A stretch of DNA of 64,000 nt, taken from NCBI GenBank assembly GCA_963732385.1, contig CAVSZB010000005.1:39742-103741 (forward strand). The letters run 5' to 3'. The notes beneath the pieces were generated by a model that did not search any database, was not told the DNA's origin, and worked only from the letters and a program-made list of their open reading frames with translations. The position numbers and the translations under genes are program-made. Source of the DNA: an uncultured bacterium (GTDB taxonomy: Bacteria; Krumholzibacteriota; Krumholzibacteriia; LZORAL124-64-63). Positions 1 to 46,565 of this stretch are shown here, in pieces. Each line of letters starts with the position of its first letter. Position 1 is the stretch's first letter.

Positions 1-1239
1 AGTACGTGCGTCCAACCTTCAGCGGGAAATTCCGCGGCGGCACCGGCACGTGGACCGGCACCACGCCGGGCGTGGCGGTCCGCACCAGGAAGTCGATGTT
101 GTGCGGGCTGCCGACGATCACCTGCACCGGGACCTCGTCGCGGACACGCGCCTCCGACAGTTCGCCGCTCACGCCCAGGAACCACTGGACCGACGGCTCG
201 AACAGACGCTCGTCGGCGCAGGTGCCCACGAGCACCCACTCGTCGCGCGGGGCGAGCGGGATGGCGGTGACGAGCTGGGGAATGCCCTTCTCGAGCAGTT
301 CGCGGATGGTCCGCTCCAGTTCGCCGAACACCGGGCCGAGGTTCTCGTGCTGGTAGGCCGGCAGTTCGCGGGGGCTCCGGTCGACCACGAACGTGCAGAG
401 CGCGCCCGCCAGCTGCGCCAGCGTGAGGTACGCCGGCAGCGGGTGGCCGCGCGGATTGCGCTGGTGGTGCGCCAGCAGAGGGACGAACGAGTTCGCGGTG
501 TGCAGCAGCCAGAAGTGACCCACGTCGGCGGTGCCGAAATCGACCAGCCCGCCCCCGCGCTGCCGCGTCCCCTCGCTCAGGTAGGCGCTCTTGGTCACCA
601 GCGTCTCGAGCAGGAAGCGCATGATGCCGGGCAGCGGACCGGCTGCCGCGATCGTCAGGCTCGGCGGCGCATAGTCGCGCGCGAGGATGAACCGGCCGTC
701 GCTGGCGCGTTCGATCTCGGCGATCTTCAGCACGACGTGACCGGCCAGGTTCTCGCCGCCGAAGGCGAGCTTCAGATTCAGGCGCGAAACGACGATCTCG
801 ACCTGCTTGCCGGGGTCGTTCTCGTCGATGACCCGCACCACATCGCCGAGCTGGCGCGTTTCCGCGGCGCCGGTGCGCTCGGGCAGGCGGCAGAGCGGCA
901 CGCCGGCCCGCTCCTCGGGCGTGGCCAGGAACACCTCGAACCGCGTCTGGTCGGGACCGAACGCCTCGTTGAGCGGCCGACTGGGCGGCAGCGGGTCGAC
1001 GGCGGGCGCGCGCACGATGCCGCCGTCGGGCAGGACGGCGTCCACCTCCAGCAGGGTCAGGCGGCCGTTGCCCAGCGCCTCGGTATCGATCTGCAGCGAG
1101 CGGACGCCCCAGGCGAACGGGATCAGGGCGTCCTGCCGGAACTGGATCTCGCCGAGCAGGGCGCGATCCGCCTGCTGGAAATGCTGAGGGCCGAGAAACA
1201 TGCCCTCCTGCCAGACGACGCGGTTGTGACGGCTCATGA
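1..1239 (-). CDS. tssK: T6SS baseplate protein TssK (N-terminal ~413 aa; continues beyond window start)
   Basis: Manual reverse-strand translation from the ATG at 1239 gives MSRHNRVVWQEGMFLGPQHFQQADRALLGEIQFRQ..., the canonical TssK/ImpJ N-terminus. The frame stays open to position 1. The ORF track omits it because no stop falls in the window. Confidence 0.8.
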
Positions 1240-1268
1240 TCGCTGCGGCCCCTTCGTTGTCCGCCCGC

Positions 1269-1745
1269 TCACGACTTGTCCGCGGTCAGGCAGAGCTTCT
1301 CCAGGCGGATGGCGATCCGGGCGGAACCGCCCTCGAGCCTGACCACCTTTTTCCAGCACCCCGAACGGTGATCGCAGAAATCCGCCACCACGCCGACGGC
1401 CGTCACCCCCTTGCCGCGCGCCAGCTCGAAGATCTGCGCCGGCTCGCCCGGCATGACGGTCAGCTCCCTGACCGACGCCACGGCCTCGCCCAATGCCCGG
1501 CCCCGGTCGTCCCAGAGCCGGTCGAAGGCCGCTTCGCCGAACGCCTCCGCGTCGCGCAGGCTGTAGATGCGCACGACCACGGCATGATCGGCCGGATCGT
1601 CGCACGAGTTCAGGCGGGCCGCCCCCACCACGCTGAAGGCATCCCTGGCGGCGCCGCCCAGCCCCAGCATGCTGCATCCGCTGACGCCCACGGCCAGGCC
1701 CAGGAGCGTCCCCAGCGCCAGCGCCCTACCGATTCTGACCGACAT
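1269..1745 (-). CDS. tssJ: T6SS outer-membrane lipoprotein TssJ
   Basis: 158 aa with a signal peptide and lipobox (LAVGVSGCS). AVVVRIYSLRD and the overall size match TssJ/VasD/SciN. It lies 29 nt upstream of tssK on the same strand. Confidence 0.75.
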   Translation of the reverse strand: MSVRIGRALALGTLLGLAVGVSGCSMLGLGGAARDAFSVVGAARLNSCDDPADHAVVVRIYSLRDAEAFGEAAFDRLWDDRGRALGEAVASVRELTVMPGEPAQIFELARGKGVTAVGVVADFCDHRSGCWKKVVRLEGGSARIAIRLEKLCLTADKS

Positions 1746-1826
1746 CTTCGACTCCTTCGTGCGCAGCCGCTGCGGGAAGGGCCGGCGCGCGGTCCGTATG
1801 ACCGGCGCGGCCTCGCCGCGCCAGAC

Positions 1827-2480
1827 TCAGCGGCCTGCGATGCCGGGCGGTGGCGGGAAGCCCGGCAACGGTCCGGCCGGCGTCGTTTCGCCGTCGCCGC
1901 CGCCGCCACCGAGACTCATGGCCAGACCGCCGACCACGCCGACGATCAGCGCGATGCCCAGCGGCTTGGCGAAGAACGACTTGCCGCCCTTTCCGGTCTG
2001 CACCGGCGTCGGCTGCCAGGTCGGCTGCGGCGCGGGAGCGGGCGTCGCGGGCGACACGGTCGCCGGCGCCGACTCGCTGCGGCAGCCCGCCGCGGCCTGA
2101 TCGAAGTCCACCTGCTCGTCCCTGGGCAGCACGTCGGCCTCCGGACGCCAGCCGGCGTCGATCCGGAGCGCCTCGCAGAACATGTCGCGCGCGATGCTGT
2201 GATTGCCCAGGTTCACCAGACAACGCGCCTTCAGCACGTAGGCGTCGCGCAGGGCCGCACCTTCGAGCGTGCCGCCACTGATGAACTCGTTGCAGATGTC
2301 GAGCGCCTTCTGGAAGTCCGCGAAATCATACAGATCCTGGGCCTGAGCGAGTGCCGGAGTCCCGGCCGCGAGCGCGGCCCCGATCCAGAGCCCGCCCGGA
2401 GCCACGGTGGCCAGAAAGGCGATCAGGGTCGCCAGGCCCAGAACCCGAAAAGCGTTGTGGCGACGGTAATTGCCCATCAT
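1827..2480 (-). CDS. TPR-like membrane protein (N-terminal TM, Pro-rich segment, C-terminal TM), T6SS-associated by position
   Basis: The MMGNYRR start at 2480 has an AGGAGG-like RBS about 12 nt upstream. Hydrophobic stretches occur at both ends. It sits between the kinase genes and tssJ. Confidence 0.45.
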   Translation of the reverse strand: MMGNYRRHNAFRVLGLATLIAFLATVAPGGLWIGAALAAGTPALAQAQDLYDFADFQKALDICNEFISGGTLEGAALRDAYVLKARCLVNLGNHSIARDMFCEALRIDAGWRPEADVLPRDEQVDFDQAAAGCRSESAPATVSPATPAPAPQPTWQPTPVQTGKGGKSFFAKPLGIALIVGVVGGLAMSLGGGGGDGETTPAGPLPGFPPPPGIAGR

Positions 2481-2633
2481 CTCCGGTCCCCCCTCCTGAT
2501 GACGATCTGCAGTCCGGAACGCAGCATCTGACAATCGCCCGCACGGCTCAAGGAAAATTTGGGCGGCGCAACGGTCAGGGCGCCGACAGTTCGAAGCGGA
2601 TCCGGATCTCCTGGTTCTCGGCCAGCCTGACCT

Positions 2634-4715
2634 TCACCCGCCCCTCCCCCCCGCGCCGCGGCTGAAAGTCAGCGCGCCGCCATCGCCCGCGTTCTGGGCG
2701 CCGGTCACCACGTAGCCGGGGCAGCGCGCGCCGATCGTGTGCTCGCCCGCCTCCAGCTTCACCTGCAGGAAGGGGGTCTGCTGGCCGGTGTCGATCCCGT
2801 CGATCGTCACGAACGCGGCCGGGGTGGCGGCCACGCGCAGTGAGCCGGTCCGCTCGAGGAAGCGGTGGTGCCCCAGCGCGAGCGTCTCGCCGGCCGCGAT
2901 CTGGAAAGCCGGCAGGTCGAGGCGCCCGTACGACGGTCGGTACCGCAAAGAGACGGCGTGACGCCCGGCGTTGGCGGCCATCACGGCGACCTTCGCCCCC
3001 TCCTTGACCAGCTTCCCGTCCAGATAGACGTCCGCGTACGGAGAGATCACCACCCGCGCGTAACCGCGGCCCGGCGTCGCCGCGACCGTGGCGGAAGCGG
3101 CAGGGGGGGCGGCCACCGGTCGTTGTTGCGCCGGCGCTGTCGTGGGCGCTGTCGTGGGCGCTGTCGTCGGCGCTGTGGTCGGCGCTGTGGTCGGCGGGGT
3201 CGACGCAGCCGGCGGCGGCGTCGACAGCGGCGCGTCGACCGGCGCTGCGGGCGCCGGCGTCGAAACCGCCACGGTGTCCGGCGTCACGCCCGTGCGCGCG
3301 AACCGCGGCACGGGAGAGAGCAGGCGGCCGCCGATCATGATCGCCGCGGCGGCCACGACCACCAGCACGGCCGCGGCCGCCCAGCGCGAGCCGGGCGAGG
3401 CGAACCATGAGCGGAGGCTGCTGCCGGACCCGGCGCCGGCCGTGCGGCCGGCCTTCGGCGCCGCCGCCTTCGGTTCGGGCGGGCGCGCCCTGCCAGCGGT
3501 GCGGGAGGCGGGGGCTGCGGAGGCCTTGGGCATGACGAGCGTGCGGCCGGTGGCGTCCTCGTCGGCGCGGGCCGGGCGGGCGGCGACGGCGAGGCTCTGG
3601 CCCGATTCCTCCGCCCTGCGCTTCAGTTCGCTGATCGCCTCGCTGGCCTTGCTGTTCTGCGGGTCGAGCGAGAGGACGTAGTGGAACTCGCGGATCGCAT
3701 CGCCGATGTTCTCGAGCCCCATGTTCTTGAAATGGAAGCCGGCGTTGAGGTGGGCCTTGATGTTCTGGTGCCGCAGCTCCTCGGCGAACGCCATCGGCTC
3801 CTTGGCGAAACGGGCCAGGTAATCGCGGCGGTACTTGATCAGGGCGCCCGACCGGTCGATGCTCTCCATGCACTCCTTGAGCGCCAGCAGCACCTGGTCC
3901 ATGTTCTGGTAGCGCTTCGCCGGGTCCTTCGCGAGCATCTTCTCCATCAGGGACGAGAGCTCCGCGGTCAGCAGCGGGCAGGCTTCGCGGGTCAGCGGCG
4001 CCGGCGCGTCGTTGATGATCGACTCCTGCACGGATGTCGGCGTGTCCCCCTTGAACGGCTTCTCCCCGGACAGGAGCTGGTAGGCCATCACGCCGAGCGA
4101 GAAGATGTCCGTGCGATGGTCGAGGTCGTCCCGGCCCGCCGCCTGCTCCGGCGACATGTACGACGGCGTGCCGACGACCATCCCCGGCAGCGTCAGGTTC
4201 TGGGCGGTCAGGCGCGCGAAGTCGCGGGTGTCGCGGGCGAGGCCGAAGTCGGCGATCTTGATCTCGCCGTCGTTGCTCAGCAGCACGTTGTTCGGCTTCA
4301 TGTCGCGGTGGATGATGCCGGTCGTGTGGGCGGCCTTCAGGCCGTAGGCCACCTCTTCGAGGATCAGCAGCGCGATCTCGGCGGGCAGCGGCCGCGAGCG
4401 GCCGGCGGCCTTCTGGAAATCGGCGAACAGCTTCTGCAGATCGGGGCCTTCGATGTACTCCATGACGATGAAGTACATGTCGTCTTCGGAGCCGAAGTCG
4501 ATCACGCGGGCGATGTTGTTGTTCTGCAGCGAGGAGGCGGCCCGCGCCTCACGCTCGAAGCGGGCGATGAAGCTTTCGTCTCCGGCCAGGCCGGGGTGCA
4601 GGACCTTGACGGCGACCGAATAGTGCAGCGTTCCGTGCAGTCCCCGGTAGACCGTGGACATGCCGCCGGAGCCGATCTTCTCCTTGATCTCGTAGCCGTG
4701 GAACGTCGCCCCCAC
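2634..4715 (-). CDS. Hanks-type Ser/Thr protein kinase with TM segment, (TAPT)n linker and C-terminal PEGA domains; C-terminus probably frameshifted at a poly-C run (true end may be 2575)
   Basis: Kinase motifs GxGxxSxVY, AVK, HRDMKPNNVLL, DFGLA and SPEQ are present. PEGA-like periplasmic repeats follow. The alternative frame ends ...VKVRLAENQEIRIRFELSAP, which resembles the C-terminus of the paralog. Confidence 0.85.
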   Translation of the reverse strand: MGATFHGYEIKEKIGSGGMSTVYRGLHGTLHYSVAVKVLHPGLAGDESFIARFEREARAASSLQNNNIARVIDFGSEDDMYFIVMEYIEGPDLQKLFADFQKAAGRSRPLPAEIALLILEEVAYGLKAAHTTGIIHRDMKPNNVLLSNDGEIKIADFGLARDTRDFARLTAQNLTLPGMVVGTPSYMSPEQAAGRDDLDHRTDIFSLGVMAYQLLSGEKPFKGDTPTSVQESIINDAPAPLTREACPLLTAELSSLMEKMLAKDPAKRYQNMDQVLLALKECMESIDRSGALIKYRRDYLARFAKEPMAFAEELRHQNIKAHLNAGFHFKNMGLENIGDAIREFHYVLSLDPQNSKASEAISELKRRAEESGQSLAVAARPARADEDATGRTLVMPKASAAPASRTAGRARPPEPKAAAPKAGRTAGAGSGSSLRSWFASPGSRWAAAAVLVVVAAAAIMIGGRLLSPVPRFARTGVTPDTVAVSTPAPAAPVDAPLSTPPPAASTPPTTAPTTAPTTAPTTAPTTAPAQQRPVAAPPAASATVAATPGRGYARVVISPYADVYLDGKLVKEGAKVAVMAANAGRHAVSLRYRPSYGRLDLPAFQIAAGETLALGHHRFLERTGSLRVAATPAAFVTIDGIDTGQQTPFLQVKLEAGEHTIGARCPGYVVTGAQNAGDGGALTFSRGAGGRGG
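3137..3196. repeat. 5 x 12-bp in-frame tandem repeat encoding (TAPT)5 linker inside the kinase gene
   Basis: The unit ctgtcgtgggcg/ctgtggtcggcg repeats five times. On the minus strand it translates to TAPTTAPTTAPTTAPTTAP. Confidence 0.8.
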
Positions 4716-4749: not shown

Positions 4750-7134
4750 TCAGGTCCGCGGTTTCCGCTTCAACTGCAGGTCGATCTTCAACCGGTCCCC
4801 CTGCGCGATCGTCACGCGGAAGGAGGTGTACTTGCCGCCGGAGCTGAGCGGCGGGAGCTGTTTCTGGCTGCCGTCGGCGGCCACCTGCGACGCGGTCTGC
4901 ACGGTGAAGTCGTCGCTGCGGACCGTCAGCGTATGCTCGCCTGGCTCGAGACGGCCCGTCCACGGCGTGTTGCCGACCCGCTCCTGATCGATGTCCAGCG
5001 GGACCGGATCGGTCGCCTCGATAGCCACCTCTCCGCCACTGAGCACCATCTCCAGCCGCACGCCCAGGGTCTGCCCGCCGCTGATCCTCACCTTCTTCAT
5101 GACCGGCGCGTAACCCGGCTTCTCGGCCCGCACCTCCCAGTTGTCCGCCGCGGTCAGTTCGGTGACCACCGGAGCGGTGCCGACCGGCCGCCACGGCTCC
5201 CCGGCCTGGCGCACCAGCACGGTGGCGCCGTCGGGCGTGACGCGCACGCGGATCCGGCCGCTGGAGCTCACCGCCGGCGCGGCCGCGGCCTCGCTCGGGG
5301 TCTCGGCGATCGTGGCCGGCGCCGGCACGGCAGCCGCGGTCCCGGGCGCGCCGGTGGCCGCGACAGCGGGCGTTTCGCCCTCTCCCTCCGGAACGAGCGC
5401 GCGCAGCTGTCCGCCCACGGAGGTCGTTTCACTCCCCGCCGCCGTCACGGCGAGCACCGTGTCCGCGTACCCCGCCAGCGACAGCCGGAACTCCCAGGCG
5501 CCGACCGCCAGGTCCGCCAGCACGCAGGCGGTCTGGCGACCGGTCGGGGTGAAATCGGCGGTGCCGGCCCGCCGCATCCAGACCTGCGCCCCTGCCGGCT
5601 CGCTGGCCACCTGTACGATCGCCGTGGCCGGCGGCGCGGTCGGGCCGCGCCGCGTGAGCAGGACCGCGGCCACCGCCACGATCACCACCGCTCCGAGCGC
5701 CATCGCCACCATGCCCCGTCGCCGGCGCAGCCCCTCCAGAATACCGGCCACGGGCGACGCGGCGGCGCGATCCGGCCGCGCCTTGCGCGGCTGACGCGGC
5801 TCCCGCGGCACACGCGGCGCACGCGGCGGCGGCGGCGCAGCCGCAGCCGGCTCCGGCGCGGGCGCCGCGACCGGCTCGGCGGCGCGCCGTGGCGGGCCGG
5901 CCGCCGGCATGACCATGGTGCGTCCCGACTCCACCGGGTCGGCGGCATCGACATCGTCGGGCTCGTGCGCGCCGAGCGGACCGGCGCCCGTGGGCGGGGG
6001 CGCGGCGCGCATCGTGACCCCTGAATCCTCGGCCCGCTTGCGCAGTTCGGCCAGGGCCTGCGAAGCCTTCGGGTTGCGCGGGTCGAGGCGCATGACGTGA
6101 CGGAATTCGCGCAGCGCGTCGGACATGCTGGCCAGGCCGAGGTTCTTGAAGTGGAAGCCGAGCCGCAGGTGCGAGTTGATGGCCTGGTGGCGCAGATCAT
6201 TGGCGGTGGCGGCCGGGTCCCGGGCGAAGCGCTGGAGCAGGTCGCGCCGCAGCTTCACCAGCCCGCCCGACGAGTCGATGCTGTCCATGCACTCCCGCAG
6301 CGCGTGCAGCACCTGGTCCATCGACTGGTACCGCTTGCCGGGATCCTTGGCCAGCATCTTGCTGACCATCTCCTCCATCTCGTTCGTCAGGAGCGGGCAC
6401 GAGGTCTCGGCCAGCGGACGGGGCGAGGCGTTGATGATGCGCTCCTGCACCTCGGTCGGGCTGTCGCCCTGGAACGGCTTCTCGCCGGCGAGGAACTGGT
6501 AGGCCATGACGCCGAGCGAGAAGATGTCGCTGCGGTGATCGACGTCGTCCCGGCCGACCGCCTGCTCCGGCGACATGTACGAGGGGGTGCCGACGATCAT
6601 GCCCGGGCGCGTCAGGTCGTCCGAGGCCATCCGCGCCTGGTCGCCCGTGTTGCGCGCGAGACCGAAGTCGGCCAGCTTCACCTCGCCGCGCCGGTCGATC
6701 AGGATGTTGCTCGGCTTGATGTCGCGGTGGACGACCCCCTCGGCATGCGCCTCGCGCAGCGCGTACGCCACCTCTTCGAGGATCAGCAGGGCGATCTCGG
6801 GCGGCAGCGGCTGGGCCGCGCCGCTCTCGGCGCGCAGCATCTCGAACACCTTGGCCAGGTCGGGCCCGTCGATGAACTCCATCACGATGAAGTAGCAGTC
6901 ATCCTCGCTGCCGAAGTCGATGACCGAGGTGATATTGACGCTGCGCAGCGCCGAGGCCGCCTTGGCCTCCCGTTCGAAGCGCGCGATGAACTGCGTGTCG
7001 CCGGCGAGGCCGGGGTGGAGGATCTTGACCGCGACGGGATAGCCCAGCGTCGTGTGGACCCCCTTGTAGACGGTCGACATCCCGCCCGCGCCGATCTTCT
7101 CGTGCACTTCGAAGCCGTGAAACGCTGTAGCCAC
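4750..7134 (-). CDS. Hanks-type Ser/Thr protein kinase (paralog of the downstream kinase) with TM and PEGA domains
   Basis: Motifs HRDIKPSNILI, DFGLA and GTPSYMSPEQ are present. The N-terminal 300 aa are near-colinear with the 2634..4715 kinase. The C-terminus has two PEGA-like domains. Confidence 0.9.
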   Translation of the reverse strand: MATAFHGFEVHEKIGAGGMSTVYKGVHTTLGYPVAVKILHPGLAGDTQFIARFEREAKAASALRSVNITSVIDFGSEDDCYFIVMEFIDGPDLAKVFEMLRAESGAAQPLPPEIALLILEEVAYALREAHAEGVVHRDIKPSNILIDRRGEVKLADFGLARNTGDQARMASDDLTRPGMIVGTPSYMSPEQAVGRDDVDHRSDIFSLGVMAYQFLAGEKPFQGDSPTEVQERIINASPRPLAETSCPLLTNEMEEMVSKMLAKDPGKRYQSMDQVLHALRECMDSIDSSGGLVKLRRDLLQRFARDPAATANDLRHQAINSHLRLGFHFKNLGLASMSDALREFRHVMRLDPRNPKASQALAELRKRAEDSGVTMRAAPPPTGAGPLGAHEPDDVDAADPVESGRTMVMPAAGPPRRAAEPVAAPAPEPAAAAPPPPRAPRVPREPRQPRKARPDRAAASPVAGILEGLRRRRGMVAMALGAVVIVAVAAVLLTRRGPTAPPATAIVQVASEPAGAQVWMRRAGTADFTPTGRQTACVLADLAVGAWEFRLSLAGYADTVLAVTAAGSETTSVGGQLRALVPEGEGETPAVAATGAPGTAAAVPAPATIAETPSEAAAAPAVSSSGRIRVRVTPDGATVLVRQAGEPWRPVGTAPVVTELTAADNWEVRAEKPGYAPVMKKVRISGGQTLGVRLEMVLSGGEVAIEATDPVPLDIDQERVGNTPWTGRLEPGEHTLTVRSDDFTVQTASQVAADGSQKQLPPLSSGGKYTSFRVTIAQGDRLKIDLQLKRKPRT

Positions 7135-7156: not shown

Positions 7157-7930
7157 TCAGGTCCGACTCTGCCGGGCCACCACGACCGTGATGTTGTCGG
7201 GGCCGCCCTCCTTGCGCGCCCGCTCCACGAGGAGCTGGCAGGCGCGCTGGGGCAGGTGCATCGAGACGATGCGCAGGATTTCGGGGTCGTGAATCACTTT
7301 GATCAGGCCGTCCGAGCAGAGCACCAGCGTGGCCCCCTCGGCGAAGATGACCGGGTTGCCGATGTCCGGCTCCACGCCCTCCTCGTTGCCGAGCCAGCGC
7401 GTCAGGACGTTCGACAGGCTCTGCTTGTCGGGCGGCAGCGTCTGGCCCTGGCGCCGGTACTCGCCGCCGAGCGAGTGGTCTTCGGTCAGCGGGAAGAGCT
7501 GCCCGTCGTGCGCGAGATAGGCGCGGCAGTCGCCGATGTGGCCGATCACCAGCTCCTGCCCGCGGACCACGGCGGCCGTGCAGGTCGTGGCCATGTTGGC
7601 GCGCAGCGGACTGGCGGCCGCATCGGCGAGGATGGCCCGGTTGGCCTCGAGCAGCGTCTCGTAGAGGGCCGCCCGCAGGTCGGTCGGCACGCCGGCGGCG
7701 AAGAAACGCTCGCCGAAGGTCTGCACCGCGATCCGGCTCGCCACCTCGCCCGCCGCGTTGCCGCCCACGCCGTCGGCCACGACGAGCAGCAGCGCCCCGG
7801 GCGCGGTGTCGCAGGTGAAGATGCCGACCGCGTCTTCGTTCTTCTCGCGCCGGCAGCCGATGTCGCTGAGGCTGGCGTGCAGGAGTCGCAGGCCGGTGGC
7901 CGGTGACGTCGGCGGGCTGTCGTGGTTCAT
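7157..7930 (-). CDS. PP2C-family Ser/Thr phosphatase
   Basis: 257 aa from the ATG at 7930, with GGAGG upstream. It carries the PP2C hallmarks DIGCRREKNEDA, VVADGVGG, GDCRAY and LCSDGL. The start overlaps the upstream gene's stop as ATGA. Confidence 0.9.
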   Translation of the reverse strand: MNHDSPPTSPATGLRLLHASLSDIGCRREKNEDAVGIFTCDTAPGALLLVVADGVGGNAAGEVASRIAVQTFGERFFAAGVPTDLRAALYETLLEANRAILADAAASPLRANMATTCTAAVVRGQELVIGHIGDCRAYLAHDGQLFPLTEDHSLGGEYRRQGQTLPPDKQSLSNVLTRWLGNEEGVEPDIGNPVIFAEGATLVLCSDGLIKVIHDPEILRIVSMHLPQRACQLLVERARKEGGPDNITVVVARQSRT

Positions 7931-9300
7931 GAGCCTCCTCTGCGACCCGGGAGCGCGAGGCCCGCCGGACGCGTTGTCCTGCGATAGACGAGCCCGACCG
8001 CGCCGCCCAGGAGCACGCGATCGCCTTCGCCGATGGTGGCCGTCCGCACCGGCCGTTCGTTGACCTGCGTCCCGTTCGTCGAGCGCAGATCGGTGATGAT
8101 GACCGCGCCCCGCCGCACCCGCAGCACCGCGTGCTGGCGGGAGACCCGCGGCTCCGCCACGACGATCGTGTTGCCGGCCGCCGAGCCGATCGTGGCGCCC
8201 GAGCGCGGCAGGCGGTGCACGGTCTGGCGTCCGCCGGCCGTCACGACCAGTTCGCCGGCCGAGGCGAAGCGCAGCCGCGCCAGCACGACCGCCGCGACGA
8301 TCAGCACCAGGGCCGCCAGCAGCAGCGCCGGCCAGCGGCCGATGCCGCGCTCGGCGAGCGCCCGGCGGGCGCGCAGCGTGCCGTCGGCCGCGAGCTCGCC
8401 GTCGGCGCGCGTCACGCGCAGCGTCACGTCGGCCGGCAGCCCCACGCCCGGCGCGGCAAACCGCGCCGCCAGCGCGCCGTCGACGACGGCCACCAGCCGC
8501 CGCACCGCCATCCCGGCCTCGCCGGCGCCGGCGGTCAGCAGCCGGCCGCCGCTGCCGTCGGCCAGGCGCCGCAGCCGCGCCGCCTCGGCGCCCGCCGCGT
8601 CGGTATCGCCGAGCAGGACGACGTACACCGCCACCCGGGCCGAGTCGGCGGCCGCCAGGCAGCTCACCGACGAGTAGCGGCTGCCCTGCCCCTGCCGGCC
8701 GCTCGTCACCACGATGAGCGTCCGCCGCGCCGGCAGCTCCGGAAAGGCCAGCACGGCCAGCGCGTCCTTCACATTGTCCCACAACGGGACCGGCGTGTCG
8801 CCGGCGAGGTCGGCCGCGGCCGGCGGGCGGGCCGCTCCCGCGCCGCCGCCACCGCCCGGCGCCAGCCGCCGCAGCGCCCGCGGACGCGACCCCGTCGCAT
8901 AGAGTCCGCGCCAGGCGTCGGGCGCGGCCTGCCCCGCGAACGCCGCCAGCGCCTCGCCGCAGGCCGCCACGGCGTCGGCGGGCAGGCCGCGCAGATCGGC
9001 CAGCACCGCCACCGCCGACGGCGCGCCGCCCGGAGCGGGGGCGAACGGCAGCAGCGTCGGCGCGCCCACCGGCCCGCCGCCCGCCGCGAGCGTCAGCGCC
9101 GCGGCCGGCACCGCCAGCGGCAGACCGCCGGCGTCGACCAGCGTGAACGGGAGCTGGTACTGCCCGCCCGTCAGCGGCACGCCCGGCTCGAGCCGCAGCT
9201 CGGCCGCAACCCCCTGGGCCCGCGCGCCGCCCCCCGGCGCCAGCAGCGCAATCACGACGGCCGCCGCCCGCAGCGACCGGAATCCGCGGCGTGAAAGCAT
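7927..9300 (-). CDS. Membrane protein with N-terminal signal peptide and periplasmic domain, one TM, and C-terminal cytoplasmic FHA domain
   Basis: Starts MLSRRGFRSLRAAAVVIALLA (signal). A TM segment WPALLLAALVLIVAAVVLARL follows. The C-terminal FHA signature is ATIGSAAGNTIVV..SRQHA..TDLRSTNGTQVN. Confidence 0.75.
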   Translation of the reverse strand: MLSRRGFRSLRAAAVVIALLAPGGGARAQGVAAELRLEPGVPLTGGQYQLPFTLVDAGGLPLAVPAAALTLAAGGGPVGAPTLLPFAPAPGGAPSAVAVLADLRGLPADAVAACGEALAAFAGQAAPDAWRGLYATGSRPRALRRLAPGGGGGAGAARPPAAADLAGDTPVPLWDNVKDALAVLAFPELPARRTLIVVTSGRQGQGSRYSSVSCLAAADSARVAVYVVLLGDTDAAGAEAARLRRLADGSGGRLLTAGAGEAGMAVRRLVAVVDGALAARFAAPGVGLPADVTLRVTRADGELAADGTLRARRALAERGIGRWPALLLAALVLIVAAVVLARLRFASAGELVVTAGGRQTVHRLPRSGATIGSAAGNTIVVAEPRVSRQHAVLRVRRGAVIITDLRSTNGTQVNERPVRTATIGEGDRVLLGGAVGLVYRRTTRPAGLALPGRRGGS

Positions 9301-9399: not shown

Positions 9400-11193
9400 C
9401 TAGTCGACCGGCAGATCGAACTGCTGTGGGCAGCGCATCACCACGGCCGCGGCCAGGAAGCGCGACACGTACTCCCGCGTCTCCTGCGGCAGACACGGCG
9501 CGTCCTTGCGCACGAGGTCCCAGAACTTCCAGCGCGACCACCAGTCGATGTTCATGCGCCGCAGGCAGGCGCGCAGCCCGTTGTCGCCCTTGTTGTAGGC
9601 GGCCACCGCGCACATGCAGTCGTTGGAACCGTAGGCGATCATCAGGTCCTGCAGGTACTGGCAGGCCGCGGTCGTGGCCCGCACCGGGTCCTTGCGCTCG
9701 TCGACGGTGTCGTCGACCCGCAGGCCGTAGTCGCGGGCGGTGCCGCGCATGAGCTGCCACATCCCCATCGCCCCGGCCGGACTCTCGATCTCGGCCTGGT
9801 AGCCGCTCTCGATGAACGGAAGGTAGCAGAAGGCCTGCGGGATCCCCTGCGCCTCGAGCTGCGAGCGCAGCATGTCCAGGTGCGGCCGCGCCCGGCGGAG
9901 CGTGCGCAGGGTGTAGTCGCGCCGGTCGACCGTCCACATCCGCACGGCGCCTTCCACCTCCGCCACCATCGTGCCCGGCAGCGCGTCCAGCCGCGTGTCG
10001 ACCCCGAACTGGGCGAAGATCCGCGACAGCTCCTCTTCCAGGCTGAAGGCCGGCGGCGGCGGGACGGCCGGCGCCGTCTCCTCGGCCGCGGTCACCTCGG
10101 GTTCCGGCGGCGGAGGCGGCGGCGGCCGCCGCCCCTCGCGCAGCTCCTGCAGCAGCGCGAACGGATCGCGGTCCCGCAGCCGATCCCGGTCGATCCGCTT
10201 GGCGGTCTCGCGCAGCGCCTCCCGCACTTCGTCGTCGCTCTGCCGGTCGGGCGGCAGCCGGTCGGCCGCGATCAGCGAGCGGATGGCGATCTCGAACTGC
10301 GCCTTGGCCACGGTGTCGTTGGGCGGCGAAGCGTCGTAGGCCACGAGCGCGTCGTCGAGGCTGCGCCGCGCCTGCTCGACGTACATGTCTTTCGTCCAGA
10401 GCCGCTCCACCCGCTCGCCCGCCGGCCGCAGCGACGGCAGCAGCAGCACCCCCACCAGCACCAGCGCCGCGATCCCCAGCACCATCGCCCCATGCACCGA
10501 AGGCACGGGACACAACTGCACGGTGAAGACGACATCGGCGAACCCGACCCGGTCCCCCACCCGCAGTACCCGCTCCTTGACCGCCTCCCCGTTGACGGAA
10601 GTGCCGTTCCTGCTCCCGGCATCGGTGAGCAGCAGCCGGTCCCCCCGCCGCTCGATCCGCGCATGCACCCCCGAGATCTGCGCCAGCGGCAGCAGCAGAT
10701 CGGCCCCCTCGTCCCGCCCGATCACGCTCAGCTTGCGCGCCAGCAGCAGCGAGGCTCCGCCCGCCCGCGTATCGCGCGACACCAGCCGCAGACAGAGCAG
10801 CCCCGCCGGATCAGGCAGCCGCCGCCCCGCCCCCCGCGCCCGCACCGGCCGCTCGAGCGAGAACACGAACTCCCGCTCCGGCCCCAGCCGCAGCACCGCG
10901 CCGTCCCGCAACGGCGCCCGCCCCACCCGCTCCCCGTCGACAAAGGTCCCGTTGGCGCTCCCCTGGTCCTCGACGAACCAGACCGCCCCCTCCTGCACCA
11001 GCTGCGCATGCCGCCGACTGAGCGCCGCATCGTCGATACAGAGATCGCACCCCGCATCCCGCCCGATCAGCAGCCGCCCCCCGGCCGGCACGCACACGTC
11101 GGCCCCGCCCGCCCGCGGACGCACCCGCGCCCCGCAGGCCGGCCGCGCCCCCGCGCGCCCCCCCGCTCTAAGTCCGCCGGAAGTGTCAGCCAT
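9400..11193 (-). CDS. FHA-FHA-TM-SLT fusion: two N-terminal FHA domains, a TM helix, poly-Pro linker and C-terminal lytic transglycosylase (SLT) domain
   Basis: FHA motifs (GRDAGCDL..SRRHA..GSANGTFV, and IGRDEGADL..SGVHA..GSRNGTSVN), a TM AMVLGIAALVLVGVLLLPSL, a PPPPPPP linker, and the SLT catalytic region ESGYQAEIESPAGAMGMWQLM...YN. Confidence 0.8.
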   Translation of the reverse strand: MADTSGGLRAGGRAGARPACGARVRPRAGGADVCVPAGGRLLIGRDAGCDLCIDDAALSRRHAQLVQEGAVWFVEDQGSANGTFVDGERVGRAPLRDGAVLRLGPEREFVFSLERPVRARGAGRRLPDPAGLLCLRLVSRDTRAGGASLLLARKLSVIGRDEGADLLLPLAQISGVHARIERRGDRLLLTDAGSRNGTSVNGEAVKERVLRVGDRVGFADVVFTVQLCPVPSVHGAMVLGIAALVLVGVLLLPSLRPAGERVERLWTKDMYVEQARRSLDDALVAYDASPPNDTVAKAQFEIAIRSLIAADRLPPDRQSDDEVREALRETAKRIDRDRLRDRDPFALLQELREGRRPPPPPPPEPEVTAAEETAPAVPPPPAFSLEEELSRIFAQFGVDTRLDALPGTMVAEVEGAVRMWTVDRRDYTLRTLRRARPHLDMLRSQLEAQGIPQAFCYLPFIESGYQAEIESPAGAMGMWQLMRGTARDYGLRVDDTVDERKDPVRATTAACQYLQDLMIAYGSNDCMCAVAAYNKGDNGLRACLRRMNIDWWSRWKFWDLVRKDAPCLPQETREYVSRFLAAAVVMRCPQQFDLPVD

Positions 11194-11195
11194 GA

Positions 11196-11627
11196 TCACG
11201 TCGCCGCAGGCAGCGGGAAACACCGGAAGAGGAACCGCGTGCCCCCCATCTGCACCCGGTCACCATCGCGCAGCGCCTGCTCGGTAATCCGCACGTCGTT
11301 CACGAGCGTCCCGTTGGTGGAGTTGAGGTCCCGCAGCACGTACTGCCCCCCCCCGAACACCACCTCCGCATGCCGACTGGAAAGGAACCGATCATCCCCG
11401 ATGATGACATCGCACCCCGCCACCGACCCGAAGCGAAGGGTCCCGGCCGTCAACCGAAAGTCCCGCCCCCGCTGCGCCCCACTGACAGCCACGAGCCACG
11501 CCACCAACTCCTGCCGCCCCACCGGACTCATGAGGACAGCCGTCTTGTCGAGATCGTCCACCGTCATCGCCCCCGGCGCCGCCACCGGCACCACAGGAGG
11601 AGGAGCAGCAGGAGGCGCAGGCGGCAC
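11196..11627 (-). CDS. FHA-domain protein (probably the C-terminal part of a zinc-ribbon/FHA protein)
   Basis: FHA signature FRLTAGTLRFGSVAGCDVIIGDDRFLSSRHAEVVFGGGQYVLRDLNSTNGTLVN. The N-terminus is a Pro/Ala-rich low-complexity stretch. Confidence 0.7.
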   Translation of the reverse strand: MPPAPPAAPPPVVPVAAPGAMTVDDLDKTAVLMSPVGRQELVAWLVAVSGAQRGRDFRLTAGTLRFGSVAGCDVIIGDDRFLSSRHAEVVFGGGQYVLRDLNSTNGTLVNDVRITEQALRDGDRVQMGGTRFLFRCFPLPAAT

Positions 11628-11690
11628 ATAGGCCGGAGGAGCCAGCAGGCGCAGCAGGAGCCGCCGGCGGAATGACCGGCCGCGCCCCGA

Positions 11691-12158
11691 TCACCGTGAT
11701 GTCATCCCCGCCCCCACCGGGTCCCCCCACCCCCGGCCCCGTCGGCACCCGACGGATCGGTTCGGAAACCGGCCGCGCCACCGGCGCATGCTCGATCCGC
11801 CGCACCGGCTCCGGCGCCCGCTGAAAAGGTTGAGGAGCAGGCGGCACCGCGCCAAGGGAGGAGGCGCAGCAGGAGCAGCCGGACAGCAGGAGCAGCCGGC
11901 CAAGTCGGCGGCCCCGCCGCCGGCGGCAGGAGACGTATAGGCAGGAGCCCCAGCCCCCGCATGAGGCGCCGGCGGCATCGGCTCCGCCGCCCGAGCCCCC
12001 CGCCCCGCCGCCGAACTCCCCCGCTCGTCATCTACAGGGATGAAATCCCCGCTAAGATCGCTCCCCCCCTCACAATAAGGACAGCTATCCCAAGACGGAT
12101 CCAGGAGATGCCCGTTCGCACAATGCCGCACCTTGTTCTTCCGCTTCCCGAACAGCAT
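11691..12158 (-). CDS. Zinc-ribbon domain protein with Pro/Ala-rich tail (probable N-terminal part of the FHA protein, split by frame changes)
   Basis: MLFGKRKNKVRHCANGHLLDPSWDSCPYCEG (CxxGH..CPYC zinc ribbon) followed by a low-complexity linker. Three overlapping frames are open across 11390-11850. Confidence 0.5.
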   Translation of the reverse strand: MLFGKRKNKVRHCANGHLLDPSWDSCPYCEGGSDLSGDFIPVDDERGSSAAGRGARAAEPMPPAPHAGAGAPAYTSPAAGGGAADLAGCSCCPAAPAAPPPLARCRLLLNLFSGRRSRCGGSSMRRWRGRFPNRSVGCRRGRGWGDPVGAGMTSR

Positions 12159-12598
12159 GCTCCCCCATCTCCCCCGCAGGACGGCCAAGCCAGCTAACTT
12201 TGTGGCTTGAGAAGGGTTCGGGGCAGTCTACCAACGGGGGTGCGGGGATTGTCAACTTACTGGGCGGAGGACTTGTTCCCAACCCAGCTTCGATCGTAAG
12301 GCCGGCGGGCAGCGTGCTCTCGCCATTTATTGCCCAGGACGCTGCTAGGATTGCCGAGATGGCTTCGAGTCACCCGTCCGCAAGCACTTCAACACGCTGA
12401 TGGCCGTGCTCATGTCGAGCCGGAACATCTGCGGAACGCAAAGCCCCAGCCAACCTACGAGGGCAGTTGATTGCAGCCAGCCCTATAGATTTACACTGCC
12501 ATGCGCTTAGACTATGCTGGTTCAGCCTTGTGGGCCAGGGGGGCCAGCGGGCTCCGTTGCAGTCACCTGATTCATGTTAACCACCGTGGGAGTGGGCA

Positions 12599-13315
12599 GT
12601 GTTTCATTGGATGATGTCGCCGCTTTCCCGACATGTCGACGGGGGCTTCGGCGCCATCGGAGACGCCTACAAGCGCGCCGCCGACAACCTGGATGAACCC
12701 GCTTCCTTAGCGAACCCGAATGGCCACTTGCCGGTGAACTTTTTGCGCCGGCATGCGATCGAGCTCTTCCTCAAATCGATGATTATGGTGCTGCATCGTT
12801 GCTTGAGCGATCCGCAAGACGAGCGCGACGGAGATGCAATGCCGGAAATACAGGTCGATGGTCGGTCGACACCCCTGTCACGCATCCATCGTATCCAGGC
12901 GCTTTTCGACTACTTTATGCAGTTGGCTACGTCTAACCGAGATCGATTTCTGGATGCCGACAAGACGGACTGGGCTAAAGTTCCGAGCGAGCTCGCCGGC
13001 TGGATAGCCGCGATTGAACGAGCAGACGCATCAAGTACTTTCTTCCGCTATCCTGAGCCGCCCAACCGTGCCGCCGTGACAGACAAGTCCGCATGGCGCG
13101 AGGTGCATCCGGAAGACATCGATGCACGGCTGAGCAGGCCAGGTCGTAGCCCTACTGGGCTCTTCATTCTCATGGGCGAGGACGAATGCGTGCGGCTTGC
13201 TTGCGCGCACGAAGGACTTCCGCTCCAGGAACTGTCATTGTCGCTGAAGCAGGCCACCGAGATGTTGTCAGGCGCTCATATCGGACTTAGGGCCGAACTT
13301 GCAGGAGGGTGGTAG
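12599..13315 (+). CDS. Hypothetical protein (238 aa), first gene of low-GC island
   Basis: GTG start with GGGAG about 6 nt upstream. GC is ~55% versus ~70% in the flanks. No recognisable motif. It lies 240 bp upstream of the DUF262 gene. Confidence 0.55.
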   Translation: MFHWMMSPLSRHVDGGFGAIGDAYKRAADNLDEPASLANPNGHLPVNFLRRHAIELFLKSMIMVLHRCLSDPQDERDGDAMPEIQVDGRSTPLSRIHRIQALFDYFMQLATSNRDRFLDADKTDWAKVPSELAGWIAAIERADASSTFFRYPEPPNRAAVTDKSAWREVHPEDIDARLSRPGRSPTGLFILMGEDECVRLACAHEGLPLQELSLSLKQATEMLSGAHIGLRAELAGGW

Positions 13316-13556
13316 TGGCCGAGAATAGCAGCATCAACGAACCGAAGGCACCGCCAGGCGATTGACCTGCGCCAGGCCAGCGCCAATCCGGCTTCGCAAG
13401 CCTTTCTTGCGAGCCATTCGCTACGTAGGTCAGAACAAGCAGAGTACCACAACCGCCCTTCGCGAATGTAAGTGCTGACATCGCAAATTACGGCGGCAGC
13501 CACCAAGTTGGATGGAATCCCGCAATCCAACAGGCACCATTCAAGGAGCATGCTGA

Positions 13557-14654
13557 GTGGAGATCGCAAAGAAACTGACTCCCACCACAAAAACTATCGA
13601 CGAACTAACCGAATTGTTCGACAACGGGCGCCTCGACCTAACGCCGGACTTTCAGAGAAACTCCGTCTGGCCTGGCCCGGCTAAAGCATATCTTGTCGAC
13701 ACCATCCTCAACGACATGCCAATCCCCCTCCTCTTCCTCACTCGAGAGAAGGACACCAATTCCAATCGCCTTCGATACCGTGTGATTGACGGGCAACAAA
13801 GAATTCGTGCCGCCATGGCTTTTCTTCACAATAGGTTCCCGATACCAAATCAATATAACCTTCAGCGCCCCAACGGCACCAAGTTCAAGCGCGTCCGGTT
13901 CCGCAATCTCTCTGAAGCGCTCAAGGAGCGCTTCATTGGGTACAGCTTCGTTGTATCTGAGCTAAGCGGATTCACGGATGAGGAGTTGCGGGACATATTT
14001 GTTCGAATCAACAAGTATGTAGTGCGCCTCAATCCCCAGGAGTTGCGGGACGCAAAGGCACCAGGCCCCTTTAGGCACTTCATCGACCAGTGTTCGCAGC
14101 GTGACATCTGGAACAAGGTCGGCATTTTCACTGGCAAGAATCGCGACCGGAAGCGCGACAAGGAGTTCATCGCTGAGTTGGCGATTCTTCTTCTCGATGG
14201 GCCGCAAGACAAGAAGGGCTCACTCGATCTCTATTACGCAGCAGTGCCCGATCAATTTTCTGGCGACGACCTCCAAGATGACCTTATCGGAACGGCCGAG
14301 ACGATTCACCAGTTGCTAGGAGCAAGCCCCCCTTCAACTCTAATTCGCCTACCTGTGTTTTATGGGCTGGTCGGCGCAATCTACAATATTCGATCAGACG
14401 AGGACGATGCGAAGAGGCTAGATGCGTCACTAACGGAAGCATATGATGCACTGGAAGAATTGTCCGACTTGGCAGATGACGTCGCTAAGGATGGTGCGGT
14501 TCCACCGGCAGACCTCACAGAGGAAGCGAAAGCCCGCCGCACTGACGCAGGGATATTTCGTCGTTCCATCAGCCAGCAGACCGACAATGTTCGGCCTCGC
14601 ACTGCGTGCATCGAGGTCCTTGAGCGCGTGATTCGATCTGCATTCGTTGAGTAG
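13557..14654 (+). CDS. DUF262 (ParB/Srx-like nuclease/NTPase fold) domain protein, 365 aa
   Basis: GTG start with AAGGAG 8 nt upstream. DUF262 motifs DFQRNSVW, AYLVDTILNDMPIPLLF and YRVIDGQQRIRA are present. No DUF1524/HNH C-terminal domain was recognised. GC is ~50%. Confidence 0.75.
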   Translation: MEIAKKLTPTTKTIDELTELFDNGRLDLTPDFQRNSVWPGPAKAYLVDTILNDMPIPLLFLTREKDTNSNRLRYRVIDGQQRIRAAMAFLHNRFPIPNQYNLQRPNGTKFKRVRFRNLSEALKERFIGYSFVVSELSGFTDEELRDIFVRINKYVVRLNPQELRDAKAPGPFRHFIDQCSQRDIWNKVGIFTGKNRDRKRDKEFIAELAILLLDGPQDKKGSLDLYYAAVPDQFSGDDLQDDLIGTAETIHQLLGASPPSTLIRLPVFYGLVGAIYNIRSDEDDAKRLDASLTEAYDALEELSDLADDVAKDGAVPPADLTEEAKARRTDAGIFRRSISQQTDNVRPRTACIEVLERVIRSAFVE

Positions 14655-14659
14655 ATGTC

Positions 14660-15655
14660 GTGCAAGACTTCATCAATCGTTACGAAGAAACCAGAGACCG
14701 CTTGGAAAGGGCAGCCCCTCGTCTTGAGGAGCAGTTAAAGACTGCTCTAAGAGATCACCGCATTCTCTTTCTTGCGGTTTCTGTACGCGTGAAGACTCTC
14801 GAGTCGGCGCTGCGCAAAATCAGCAAGAAGAAGTACAGCGATCCCTGGCAACAGATGATGGACTTGATCGCTGGGAGAATCTTTACCTATTTTCGACCGG
14901 ACGCCACCCAAGTGGAATCAGTTATCAGAGACTATTTTGATGTTCACGAGGAACACTCCAAGAACAAGTCAGATGATCTTGAATTCAACAAGTTCGGCTA
15001 CACATCCAGACACTTGGTATGTTCTCTGCGCGAGCGGTTTCCCGACCTTCGATTGAAGTCTCTAATTCCGGAAGGGATGATGTTCGAGCTTCAGATCCGA
15101 TCCGTCCTTGAACATGGATGGGCTGAGATAGAGCACGAACTGGTCTACAAGTCCGGTACGGAACCTCCAGACGCTATCCGAAGAAGATTTGCTGCCTCTG
15201 CGGCCGCACTGGAAATAGTCGAGCGCGAGTTCGACAGCCTTCGCGACTTTGAATTTCAAATGGCGGTGGATAGGTCGTTAGTCATTTCTGGCAATCTTGG
15301 TGCTCCCCTAGATAGGGCTTGGTTTATCGCCGTGCTGATGCGGGAATATCCTAGTCGCAGCACTTGGAGTCCCGATCCGCAGAAGAATGTCTTCTTCCGC
15401 AGTTATGAGCTCGTGCTCATCGAATCGCTTCGAGCGGTCGGTGTATCTACTGTTCGGGACTTTCTCAACAGGCTTCGCAAGCCAAAGCCTAGAAGAATGG
15501 TTCGCGAGTACGCTAAGAAGCGAGGGATACTCGAGGCCGACGTTTCTCATCTTCCAATCGCGATCTTCGCGACGTTTTATGACTCTGCGATCTCCATACC
15601 TGGAGAAATCAAACAAGTTGCTGACTCCACCATGCGCGAGCTACTGGCTTTATAG
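14660..15655 (+). CDS. RelA/SpoT synthetase-fold nucleotidyltransferase (small-alarmone-synthetase / toxSAS-like) with ~150-aa C-terminal extension
   Basis: Motifs VRVKTLESALRKISKK, DLIAGRIFTYF, FGYTSRHLV and ELQIRSVLEHGWAEIEHELVYK match the RelA/SpoT (PF04607) synthetase core. GTG start lies 5 nt after the DUF262 stop. GC is ~50%. Confidence 0.8.
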   Translation: MQDFINRYEETRDRLERAAPRLEEQLKTALRDHRILFLAVSVRVKTLESALRKISKKKYSDPWQQMMDLIAGRIFTYFRPDATQVESVIRDYFDVHEEHSKNKSDDLEFNKFGYTSRHLVCSLRERFPDLRLKSLIPEGMMFELQIRSVLEHGWAEIEHELVYKSGTEPPDAIRRRFAASAAALEIVEREFDSLRDFEFQMAVDRSLVISGNLGAPLDRAWFIAVLMREYPSRSTWSPDPQKNVFFRSYELVLIESLRAVGVSTVRDFLNRLRKPKPRRMVREYAKKRGILEADVSHLPIAIFATFYDSAISIPGEIKQVADSTMRELLAL

Positions 15656-15781
15656 CGGAGAAAGCCCCCACACGTGGTGCGAGGAGCTGCCTCACTCTAC
15701 GATCGGCTCCTGAGGTGGAACCGTGTCCTCGCGGCATAAGATCTCTCTGGAGGCCTGCTTGAAACGAACCAGACGATCGGG

Positions 15782-16258
15782 CAGTCGCTGGGGCTGACGG
15801 CAAGGCAGATGCGGATCGGGCGGGTGACGGTGGCCATGCGGTACGAGGCGAAGGGTGGGGAGTATTCGCGGAAGTTCAGCCACTATGAGATCTCGCAGCA
15901 GCTCAAGTTCATCGAGGAGGATGTGGCGCGGTACGATGAGTTTCGGGAGGTGCTCCTGGGAGTGCCGGGGTTGCAGGTGAATCAAGAGTTCGAGGCGAGC
16001 GGGGCGGAGTCGGCGAAGAACGACATGATGATCGAGGCACTGCGGTCGGCCAGACGGAAGGCGGAGGCGCTGGCGGCGGTCGTGGGAGCCAATGTCGGGC
16101 GGGCGATTTCGATCAGCGAGTTCAAGCCCAATCCGACGGATCGCGACATCGACACCGTGGCCTTTCTGCGCGGAGTGCCGTTCCGCGGCCCCGAGCCGGA
16201 CGGGATCGAGATCCGGGGGCGGATCTACGCCGTGTTCGAACTCGAGTAGGCAGCGGGC
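15782..16258. repeat. Direct repeat copy 1 (~477 bp, ~97% identical to 18362..18838; offset exactly 2580 bp)
   Basis: Base-by-base comparison of 15782-16258 with 18362-18838. Mismatches cluster in the first ~30 bp. Copy 1 encodes only the C-terminal 146 aa of the SIMPL protein. Confidence 0.85.
15809..16249 (+). pseudogene. Truncated duplicate of SIMPL/DUF541 gene (3' fragment, no signal peptide)
   Basis: The 146-aa translation is near-identical to residues ~102-247 of the 18086..18829 product. Confidence 0.7.
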
Positions 16259-40419: not shown

Positions 40420-40441
40420 GGTGGCTCCTGTCGCTGGATCG

Positions 40442-43105: not shown

Positions 43106-43137
43106 GAATCCCCTCCTCGCATCCGGGATCGTTGCGC

Positions 43138-46537: not shown

Positions 46538-46565
46538 CGCCGTCCCCTTGCGCCGACACCCGGCG

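Follow-up and report, generated by a model that had tools for sequence, protein, structure and literature searches.

How might a bacterium tie the choice of a site for building a type VI secretion system (T6SS) to the opening of its cell wall at that site? The question is raised by a gene on the minus strand (positions 9400 to 11193) of a 64,000-nucleotide stretch of contig CAVSZB010000005.1, from an uncultured bacterium of the Krumholzibacteriota, which we refer to in its full length as the window. The gene encodes two FHA domains, a single transmembrane (TM) helix and a C-terminal lytic transglycosylase (LTG) domain in one polypeptide. Assembly of the T6SS membrane complex needs local cleavage of peptidoglycan, which involves MltE in EAEC (enteroaggregative Escherichia coli) and, as has been proposed, TagX in Acinetobacter, and is governed post-translationally by PpkA, PppA and Fha (PMC13584744, PMC9251886). 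As far as these two sources summarise the work of Santin & Cascales (2017), MltE is recruited by TssM in EAEC. A first-pass annotation of the DNA, made from the sequence alone, had invoked this need for wall cleavage with the same two precedents, in agreement with the literature, and had proposed that kinase signalling could gate peptidoglycan remodelling at the assembly site. On the evidence presented here we favour, with moderate confidence, the view that the gene product is an inner-membrane-anchored LTG of the MltD type with a tandem FHA tail, serving as a T6SS accessory component in this lineage.

Domain layout, conserved residues and topology

The gene and its parts are located as follows, with residues given in the numbering of the 597-residue protein.

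9400..11193, minus strand: complete gene, FHA-FHA-TM-helical domain-Pro linker-MltD-type LTG, 597 aa plus stop
10855..11130, minus strand: FHA domain 1, residues 22-113
10501..10797, minus strand: FHA domain 2, residues 133-231
10429..10497, minus strand: single TM helix, residues 233-255; Kyte-Doolittle value 2.64; a helix in the AlphaFold2 model
10129..10410, minus strand: clade-specific helical domain, predicted to be periplasmic, residues 262-355; LWTxxMY motif
10042..10128, minus strand: Pro-rich linker, residues 356-384; low model confidence, length variable among homologues
9403..10041, minus strand: MltD-type (family 1) LTG domain, residues 385-597; no LysM, no lipobox
9808..9810, minus strand: codon of the catalytic glutamate, E462 in F-I-E-S-G-Y, aligned with I-E-S of Pseudomonas aeruginosa MltD

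Pfam assigns to the protein two FHA domains (E 1.8e-37, 128 bits, cutoff 20.7) and an SLT domain (PF01464, residues 452-541, E 9.1e-21, 74 bits, cutoff 21.3); PF16697 likewise scores above its cutoff (91 versus 33 bits). An AlphaFold2 model built on the alignment of homologues, with a mean predicted local distance difference test score (pLDDT) of 88.6, displays two FHA beta-sandwiches, the TM helix, a helical domain spanning residues 268-353 and a lysozyme-like domain, the pLDDT exceeding 90 across most of residues 385-592. Together, Pfam, hydrophobicity and the model bear out the anatomy claimed in the first-pass annotation (FHA, FHA, one TM helix, poly-Pro linker, C-terminal SLT domain). All the parts it listed are present, while the list was incomplete, since the helical domain of residues 262-355 had been overlooked. 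This domain of about 90 residues between the TM helix and the poly-Pro linker is conserved, with W266, M270, Y271, L279, A303, L307 and D311 invariant. An artefactual open reading frame was rejected on the basis of a GC content at third codon positions of 0.92, as in the other coding frames of the window (~71% GC), and of more than 45 full-length homologues. The ATG start lies 2 nt past the stop of the upstream gene, and an alternative GTG start is found at 11223.

To assess the conservation of functional residues we used an alignment of 29 full-length homologues with 42-87% identity, to which the residue and topology counts below refer. The LTG motifs are invariant or at least 90% conserved (E462-S463, Q480, M482, A531-A532-Y533-N534-K535-G536, E571 and Y575); the SLT motif quoted in the first-pass annotation, ESGYQAEIESPAGAMGMWQLM, corresponds to residues 462-482. 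The catalytic glutamate, whose absence had been named there as counting against the proposal, is present as E462 and invariant. In both FHA domains the residues that bind phosphothreonine (pThr) are invariant or nearly so, namely G44-R45, S59-R60..H62 and N81-G82-T83 in the first and G159-R160, S174..H177 and N196-G197 in the second. Structural comparison with Foldseek is in line with this pattern. The best matches of the C-terminal domain in the Protein Data Bank are the P. aeruginosa MltD entries 8rhi, 8rhf and 8rhe (E 7e-9), and those of the N-terminal domains are the pThr-binding FHA domains of GarA, OdhI, FhaA, EmbR and Rv1747, with root-mean-square deviations of 1.3-1.9 A for GarA, OdhI, FhaA and Rv1747. 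By sequence, too, P. aeruginosa MltD is the nearest protein of solved structure (8rhe, E 3.6e-18), its I-E-S aligning to residues 461-463. The protein is not an MltD ortholog, as it reaches 82.9 bits on NCBIfam NF008050 against an equivalog cutoff of 508, has no LysM match in Pfam and lacks a lipobox; a weak NCBIfam match to the flagellar-assembly LTG BB0259 was also obtained. Judged by alignment and model, the LTG domain is predicted to be catalytically competent and the FHA domains to be of the canonical pThr-binding type.

A single hydrophobic segment occurs at the same position in all 29 homologues, and no N-terminal signal peptide was found in the protein. Since some 230 folded residues precede the TM helix without a signal peptide, since FHA domains depend on kinases of the cytoplasm and an LTG on a substrate in the periplasm, and since all five conserved cysteine columns (456, 511, 528, 543 and 567) fall within the LTG domain, we infer an N-in/C-out topology with cytoplasmic FHA domains and a periplasmic LTG. 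The periplasmic placement of the SLT domain assumed in the first-pass annotation agrees with this prediction.

Linkage of the module to T6SS genes

In the window, the gene belongs to a tightly packed minus-strand operon, with gaps of at most 35 nt between the kinase genes, which consists of the following genes in addition to the FHA-LTG gene.

11196..12188, minus strand: upstream module gene, Zn-ribbon, Pro-rich linker and FHA domain
7927..9300, minus strand: partner membrane protein, 457 aa, with signal peptide, periplasmic beta-sandwich plus vWA-like domain, TM helix and cytoplasmic FHA domain
7157..7930, minus strand: PP2C Ser/Thr phosphatase, its start overlapping the stop of the partner gene (ATGA)
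4750..7134, minus strand: Hanks-type Ser/Thr kinase with C-terminal PEGA domain
2634..4715, minus strand: second Hanks-type Ser/Thr kinase with PEGA domain
1826..2633, minus strand: conserved protein between the kinases and tssJ, 268 aa, with a sub-threshold TPR hint
1269..1826, minus strand: TssJ (T6SS-SciN lipoprotein)
2..1285, minus strand: TssK (T6SS_VasE), running off the window end

The T6SS context that the first-pass annotation had assumed is therefore real, TssJ and TssK being encoded at the end of the same operon. A second T6SS block at 38101-51227 comprises VgrG, ClpV, TssF, TssC, TssB and TssA, and neither TagQRST nor TagF was detected.

In order to see how widely this arrangement is kept, we turned to the relatives of the gene, all of which come from uncultured metagenome-assembled genomes (MAGs). 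The close family comprises about 47 clusters at 90% identity, in which the helical domain and the LTG come after the FHA domains (mostly two); a small number of members are truncated fragments, and the proteins are named at most "FHA domain-containing protein". A scan of species representatives with one genome per species yielded about 20 orthologue loci, mostly from Ca. Krumholzibacteriia/-ota MAGs and some labelled Fibrobacteraceae, Gemmatimonadota or "bacterium". Flanks long enough for analysis were available for 14 of them. In 13 of these 14 loci, from Ca. Krumholzibacteriota and relatives, the module adjoins tssJKLM, either co-directionally (eight loci) or divergently (tssMLKJ, five loci). 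The fourteenth (L017) has tssF-clpV directly upstream, and its contig ends after the kinase, before the position of tssJ. In two loci (L015 and L018) clpV-vgrG lies directly upstream of the module, which therefore sits inside the T6SS cluster. Five long contigs with 43-48% identity, without exception, encode the small FHA protein, the FHA-FHA-LTG protein, an X-TM-FHA protein of about 460 aa and the PP2C phosphatase beside tssJ-tssK-tssL-tssM; four of the five also have the PEGA kinase and an unassigned protein of about 213 aa, both of which are missing from L001. On an Eisenbacteria contig, too, the module is present and runs to the contig end.

Survival of this linkage through an inversion, and among sequences with as little as about 42% identity, speaks for selection and for functional coupling. 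A far more distant FHA-FHA-TM-LTG protein (P0064 in locus L086; 128 bits, 59% GC), which retains QESGY and has no helical domain, is encoded between tssA-tssB-tssC-tssE and hcp, beside a PEGA kinase. With 13 of 14 loci adjoining tssJKLM, the remaining one adjoining tssF-clpV and a distant lineage inside another T6SS cluster, the association put forward in the first-pass annotation is strongly supported. By its recurrent co-localisation with tss genes the gene qualifies as a T6SS accessory gene, with a putative role in assembly or secretion.

A proposed phosphorylation-directed mechanism and its alternatives

Because the FHA-LTG gene sits in a kinase/phosphatase module beside genes of the T6SS membrane complex, kinase signalling probably directs the site of wall opening for the T6SS, and the enzyme itself may be gated by phosphorylation. 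According to this model, the PEGA-domain membrane kinases would autophosphorylate, or would phosphorylate a component of the module or of the T6SS, at a prospective assembly site, perhaps with a contribution from the vWA-like partner, which may sense some cue in the envelope. The tandem FHA domains would dock on the resulting pThr marks, thereby concentrating and possibly activating the LTG. A spacer of about 130 residues, made up of the helical domain and the poly-Pro stretch, would allow the enzyme to reach the sacculus, where local cutting of glycan strands would make way for insertion of the TssJLM membrane complex; the PP2C phosphatase would reset the system. More tentatively, the FHA-TM-LTG protein, the vWA/X-TM-FHA protein and the small FHA protein may together constitute a hitherto unrecognised transmembrane device that turns kinase phospho-marks into local peptidoglycan cleavage and is wired into the T6SS pathway in Krumholzibacteriota and at least one other lineage.

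If this model holds, the choice of the T6SS firing site and the opening of the wall would physically be one step, and the locus would provide the first case of inside-out phospho-control of a wall-lytic enzyme in the building of a secretion machine. The protein would, besides, join the few periplasmic autolysins that are controlled inside-out, from the cytoplasm. With pThr readers and a wall cutter in one polypeptide, the link between phospho-control of the T6SS and the breach of peptidoglycan becomes testable.

Several observations weigh against this model. Two of the modules (L018 and L027) contain no kinase gene. The 14 syntenic loci all come from a single lineage at phylum level, and part of the synteny conservation is therefore shared ancestry. 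As to a phospho-acceptor, none was identified: the alignment reveals no conserved threonine in the linker between the FHA domains, and the N-terminus of TssL in the related loci, searched on the model of Thr14, the known phospho-acceptor of Agrobacterium TssL, has no conserved threonine either. The positive-inside rule gives no orientation, as lysine and arginine residues in the TM flanks average 1.7 versus 2.3. Finally, FHA-TM-LTG genes are found with no T6SS genes within 10 kb in Silvanigrellaceae (L029, L035, L054), in unclassified MAGs labelled Pseudomonadota or "bacterium" (L036, L037), in Zixibacteria (L049), in Ignavibacteria (L067) and on a metagenome contig (L088), and L035 has a housekeeping neighbourhood with no kinase nearby. 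These distant loci were checked by tblastn with the T6SS proteins of the window, which may miss very divergent genes, and in L035, L037 and L067 also by Pfam assignment of the neighbours.

The last of these points leads to an alternative in which the protein is a general wall enzyme under Ser/Thr kinase control, comparable to the actinobacterial FhaA/FhaB-PstP-PknA/B system, and its proximity to the T6SS is inherited gene order. A HMMER search of 1.84 billion cluster representatives returned 142 matches at E <= 1e-30. Among the top 150 representatives of clusters at 50% identity, 74 have the architecture FHA(-FHA)-[TM]-LTG, annotated only as "FHA domain-containing protein", and about 10, confined to the close clade, contain the helical domain; FHA-FHA-ABC proteins also occur among the sequence matches. 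In four distant loci without nearby T6SS genes, all of those examined for this feature, an X-TM-FHA protein adjoins the FHA-TM-LTG protein and carries VWA in L088 and NHL plus VWA in L067, and the small FHA protein is present as well in L035, L037 and L088. These conserved gene groups, each with a shorter FHA(-FHA)-TM-LTG gene beside its partner and usually with a small FHA gene, lie at the following positions.

L035, 7627-11146: FHA(-FHA)-TM-LTG and partner
L037, 5275-8950: FHA(-FHA)-TM-LTG and partner
L067, 8075-11855: FHA(-FHA)-TM-LTG and partner
L088, 2482-5807: FHA(-FHA)-TM-LTG and partner

This core in other phyla, the breadth of the architecture beyond the helical-domain clade and the best NCBIfam FHA match, which is FhaB/FipA, all speak for a general wall enzyme. 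We nevertheless regard it as unlikely. Every one of the 14 orthologous loci is linked to T6SS genes (tssJKLM in 13 of them and in two orientations, tssF-clpV in the other), and in L015 and L018 (in L017, for the part that its contig covers) the module stands between clpV/vgrG or tssF/clpV on one side and tssJKLM on the other. The distant, independent lineage likewise has its gene within a T6SS cluster, and in the window the gene shares its operon with tssJ-tssK. Ser/Thr kinases, PP2C phosphatases and FHA proteins in T6SS loci are, moreover, a known regulatory module. The only member of the helical-domain clade with locus context among the profiled matches (P0006 in L007) is T6SS-linked. The wider comparison shows the pair or triad of FHA membrane proteins to be a conserved, generic core that has been recruited to the T6SS in certain lineages, including this one. 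As FHA-TM-LTG proteins occur without nearby T6SS genes, the device is not intrinsically part of the T6SS. The triad appears to be unstudied beyond T6SS loci, and the wider family suggests a general, likewise unstudied route by which Hanks kinases direct local wall remodelling.

Alternatively, the protein might stand in for TagH (Fha1), its FHA domains being phosphorylated and/or nucleating baseplate and membrane complex while the LTG fixes the site in a wall gap; the output would then be cytoplasmic. Fha is required for T6SS assembly in P. aeruginosa, Agrobacterium and Serratia, no canonical TagH is encoded in the window, and FHA domains occur there in the three module genes only. The protein also matches the TagH family TIGR03354 over residues 147-404, but at 67.4 bits it falls below the cutoff of 120.25. 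Its two FHA neighbours, which score 29.6 and 43.7 bits, could fill the role of TagH. Since the LTG catalytic motifs are conserved in full, it is evident that selection acts on the activity of the enzyme itself, and we consider a TagH equivalent to be improbable, to about the same degree as a general wall enzyme.

A third possibility is that the LTG domain acts as a non-catalytic peptidoglycan anchor in the manner of TagL. In the related loci TssL consists of DotU and a TM helix, beyond which about 10 residues reach into the periplasm; it has no peptidoglycan-binding (OmpA/MotB-like) domain, a lack for which such an anchor would compensate, and no TagL-, TagN- or TagP-like gene is found among the genes with Pfam matches in the five long contigs. 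The lack of this domain in TssL and the absence from the window of any other MltD-like LTG domain also speak for the favoured model, as they suggest a need for a wall-related function. An anchor is nonetheless very improbable, because the E462-S463, GxWQxM, AAYNxG and E/Y motifs, which pseudo-enzymes normally lose, are invariant in the 29 sequences, and because the closest relative of the domain, MltD, is an active enzyme. A T6SS effector or immunity protein was rejected, as the protein is TM-anchored, shows no PAAR, VgrG or MIX features and is encoded among regulatory genes; so was a YscD-like ring protein of a type III secretion system (T3SS), since PF16697 matches through the FHA fold only, the periplasmic part consists of a helical domain and an LTG, and no T3SS genes were seen in the window.

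Relation to known systems and further features of the locus

The favoured reading, a membrane-anchored LTG with pThr readers serving the T6SS, combines parts that are individually known: a family-1 LTG, pThr-binding FHA domains, the threonine phosphorylation pathway module of the T6SS and LTGs dedicated to secretion. New are the fusion, its membrane-spanning arrangement and the partner. A 2026 catalogue of T6SS accessory genes covers TagH, TagL, TagN, TagP, TagW, TagX and MltE and contains no FHA-LTG fusion. Our literature searches found no paper combining "FHA domain" with "SLT domain" and none linking Krumholzibacteriota to the T6SS, and the works retrieved on T6SS together with lytic transglycosylase and FHA/PpkA are reviews and papers that keep phosphorylation control and peptidoglycan remodelling separate. 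The impression conveyed in the first-pass annotation that such a coupling is undescribed thus stands, as far as these searches reach.

With MltD (8RHE/8RHF/8RHI) the protein shares the catalytic fold and the motifs I-E-S, GxWQ[FL]M and AYNxG. It differs from MltD in having neither LysM nor a lipoprotein signal and in its TM anchor, helical domain, poly-Pro spacer and FHA fusion. The proposed task, local opening of peptidoglycan for the T6SS membrane complex or tube, is that of MltE and TagX, and like TagX the protein is encoded inside or beside a T6SS locus. MltE, on the other hand, is a housekeeping outer-membrane lipoprotein that is encoded elsewhere and activated via the periplasmic part of TssM, and TagX is an L,D-endopeptidase rather than an LTG; unlike the FHA-LTG protein, neither has a cytoplasmic signalling domain.

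The module as a whole resembles PpkA/PppA/Fha1 (TagE/TagG/TagH) in that T6SS genes are accompanied by those for a Hanks kinase, a PP2C phosphatase and FHA proteins, and that a periplasmic vWA-type domain is present. In the P. aeruginosa T6SS the vWA domain sits on PpkA, whereas here it is found on the FHA partner. The module further departs from the TagE/TagG/TagH pathway in having no protein that reaches the TagH cutoff, three FHA proteins of which two span the membrane, kinases with PEGA ectodomains, and one fusion of FHA domains to a wall hydrolase.

Outside the T6SS, tandem canonical FHA domains fused to a membrane protein and encoded beside a kinase are known from the PknF-regulated Rv1747 of Mycobacterium tuberculosis, and FHA-mediated kinase control of cell-wall processes from FhaA-MviN and FhaB(FipA) under PknB. 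The effector in our case is a periplasmic LTG, unlike the transporter and flippase of Rv1747 and FhaA-MviN, and the context is the T6SS instead of growth and division. The same topology, in which a single TM helix links a cytoplasmic FHA fold to a periplasmic domain, is found in another secretion system, in the T3SS inner-ring proteins YscD, PrgH, MxiG and EscD. In these proteins pThr-binding residues are generally missing from the FHA fold, and ring-building motifs make up the periplasmic part, whereas the FHA-LTG protein has invariant pThr residues and an enzyme for its periplasmic part. SLT-family enzymes that make a local gap are also encoded in the loci of other trans-envelope machines, such as EtgA and IpgF (T3SS), VirB1 (type IV secretion system) and SltF and FlgJ (flagella); these are soluble periplasmic proteins or lipoproteins and are targeted by periplasmic protein contacts. 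We know of no LTG dedicated to a secretion system, pilus or flagellum that carries a cytoplasmic phosphopeptide reader.

The vWA-like domain of the partner protein was assigned through Foldseek matches to ITIH1, integrin I domains and the vWA domain of CMG2, along with a weak TIGR03436 match. Because only 5 homologue sequences were usable and the AlphaFold2 model has a pLDDT of 64.7, the vWA-like assignment of the ectodomain is tentative. In the FHA domain of the partner, Gly-Ser (residues 372-373) takes the place of the canonical Gly-Arg pair for pThr binding and is invariant in the 5 homologues, and S387..H390 and N409-G410-T411 are retained; to judge from these residues, this domain may bind differently or may not bind pThr at all. 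The conserved protein encoded at 1826-2633, with about 213 aa in relatives, was found in 11 of the 14 orthologous loci. Apart from the TPR hint it has no Pfam or NCBIfam family, and we regard it as an uncharacterised candidate T6SS accessory gene.

The upstream module gene is broken in the window, where the reading frame is left at about 11850 and regained at about 11640, with an in-frame stop at 11691-11693. In relatives it is a single open reading frame (L009, 83% identity; L007, 280 aa, Zn_ribbon_3 plus FHA). Either an assembly error in the GC-rich run of proline codons or recent pseudogenisation would account for the break.

Directly upstream of the operon, at about 12000-16000, lies a low-GC island (0.54-0.57 versus ~0.70) with genes for GmrSD_N-domain and RelA/SpoT-domain proteins (13557-14654 and 14660-15655, both on the plus strand). 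It has the look of a defence or toxin island acquired by insertion; an AbiEii-like gene is found at 20284-21075. The T6SS genes are split in this genome, with tssJ/tssK at the left edge of the window and vgrG-clpV-tssF...tssC-tssB-tssA 36-50 kb off. As clpV-vgrG adjoin the FHA module in L015 and L018, about 26 kb, including the low-GC island, were apparently inserted here.

Among the other genes of the window, 28952-32041 on the plus strand encodes a 1029-aa protein with phospholipase D (PLD) active-site motifs. A similar PLDc protein of 1014 aa in the related locus L007 (942-3986) adjoins DUF2169 and PAAR genes, which makes it probable that the window protein serves the T6SS as a phospholipase effector. 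Very large secreted proteins with C-termini of the FlgD_ig or Por_Secre_tail type are encoded near the T6SS or the module in the window (52901-56662, minus strand), in L003 (17420-20410) and in L006 (17203-21743), with trypsin and fn3 domains in the window and FG-GAP and ASPIC domains in the relatives.

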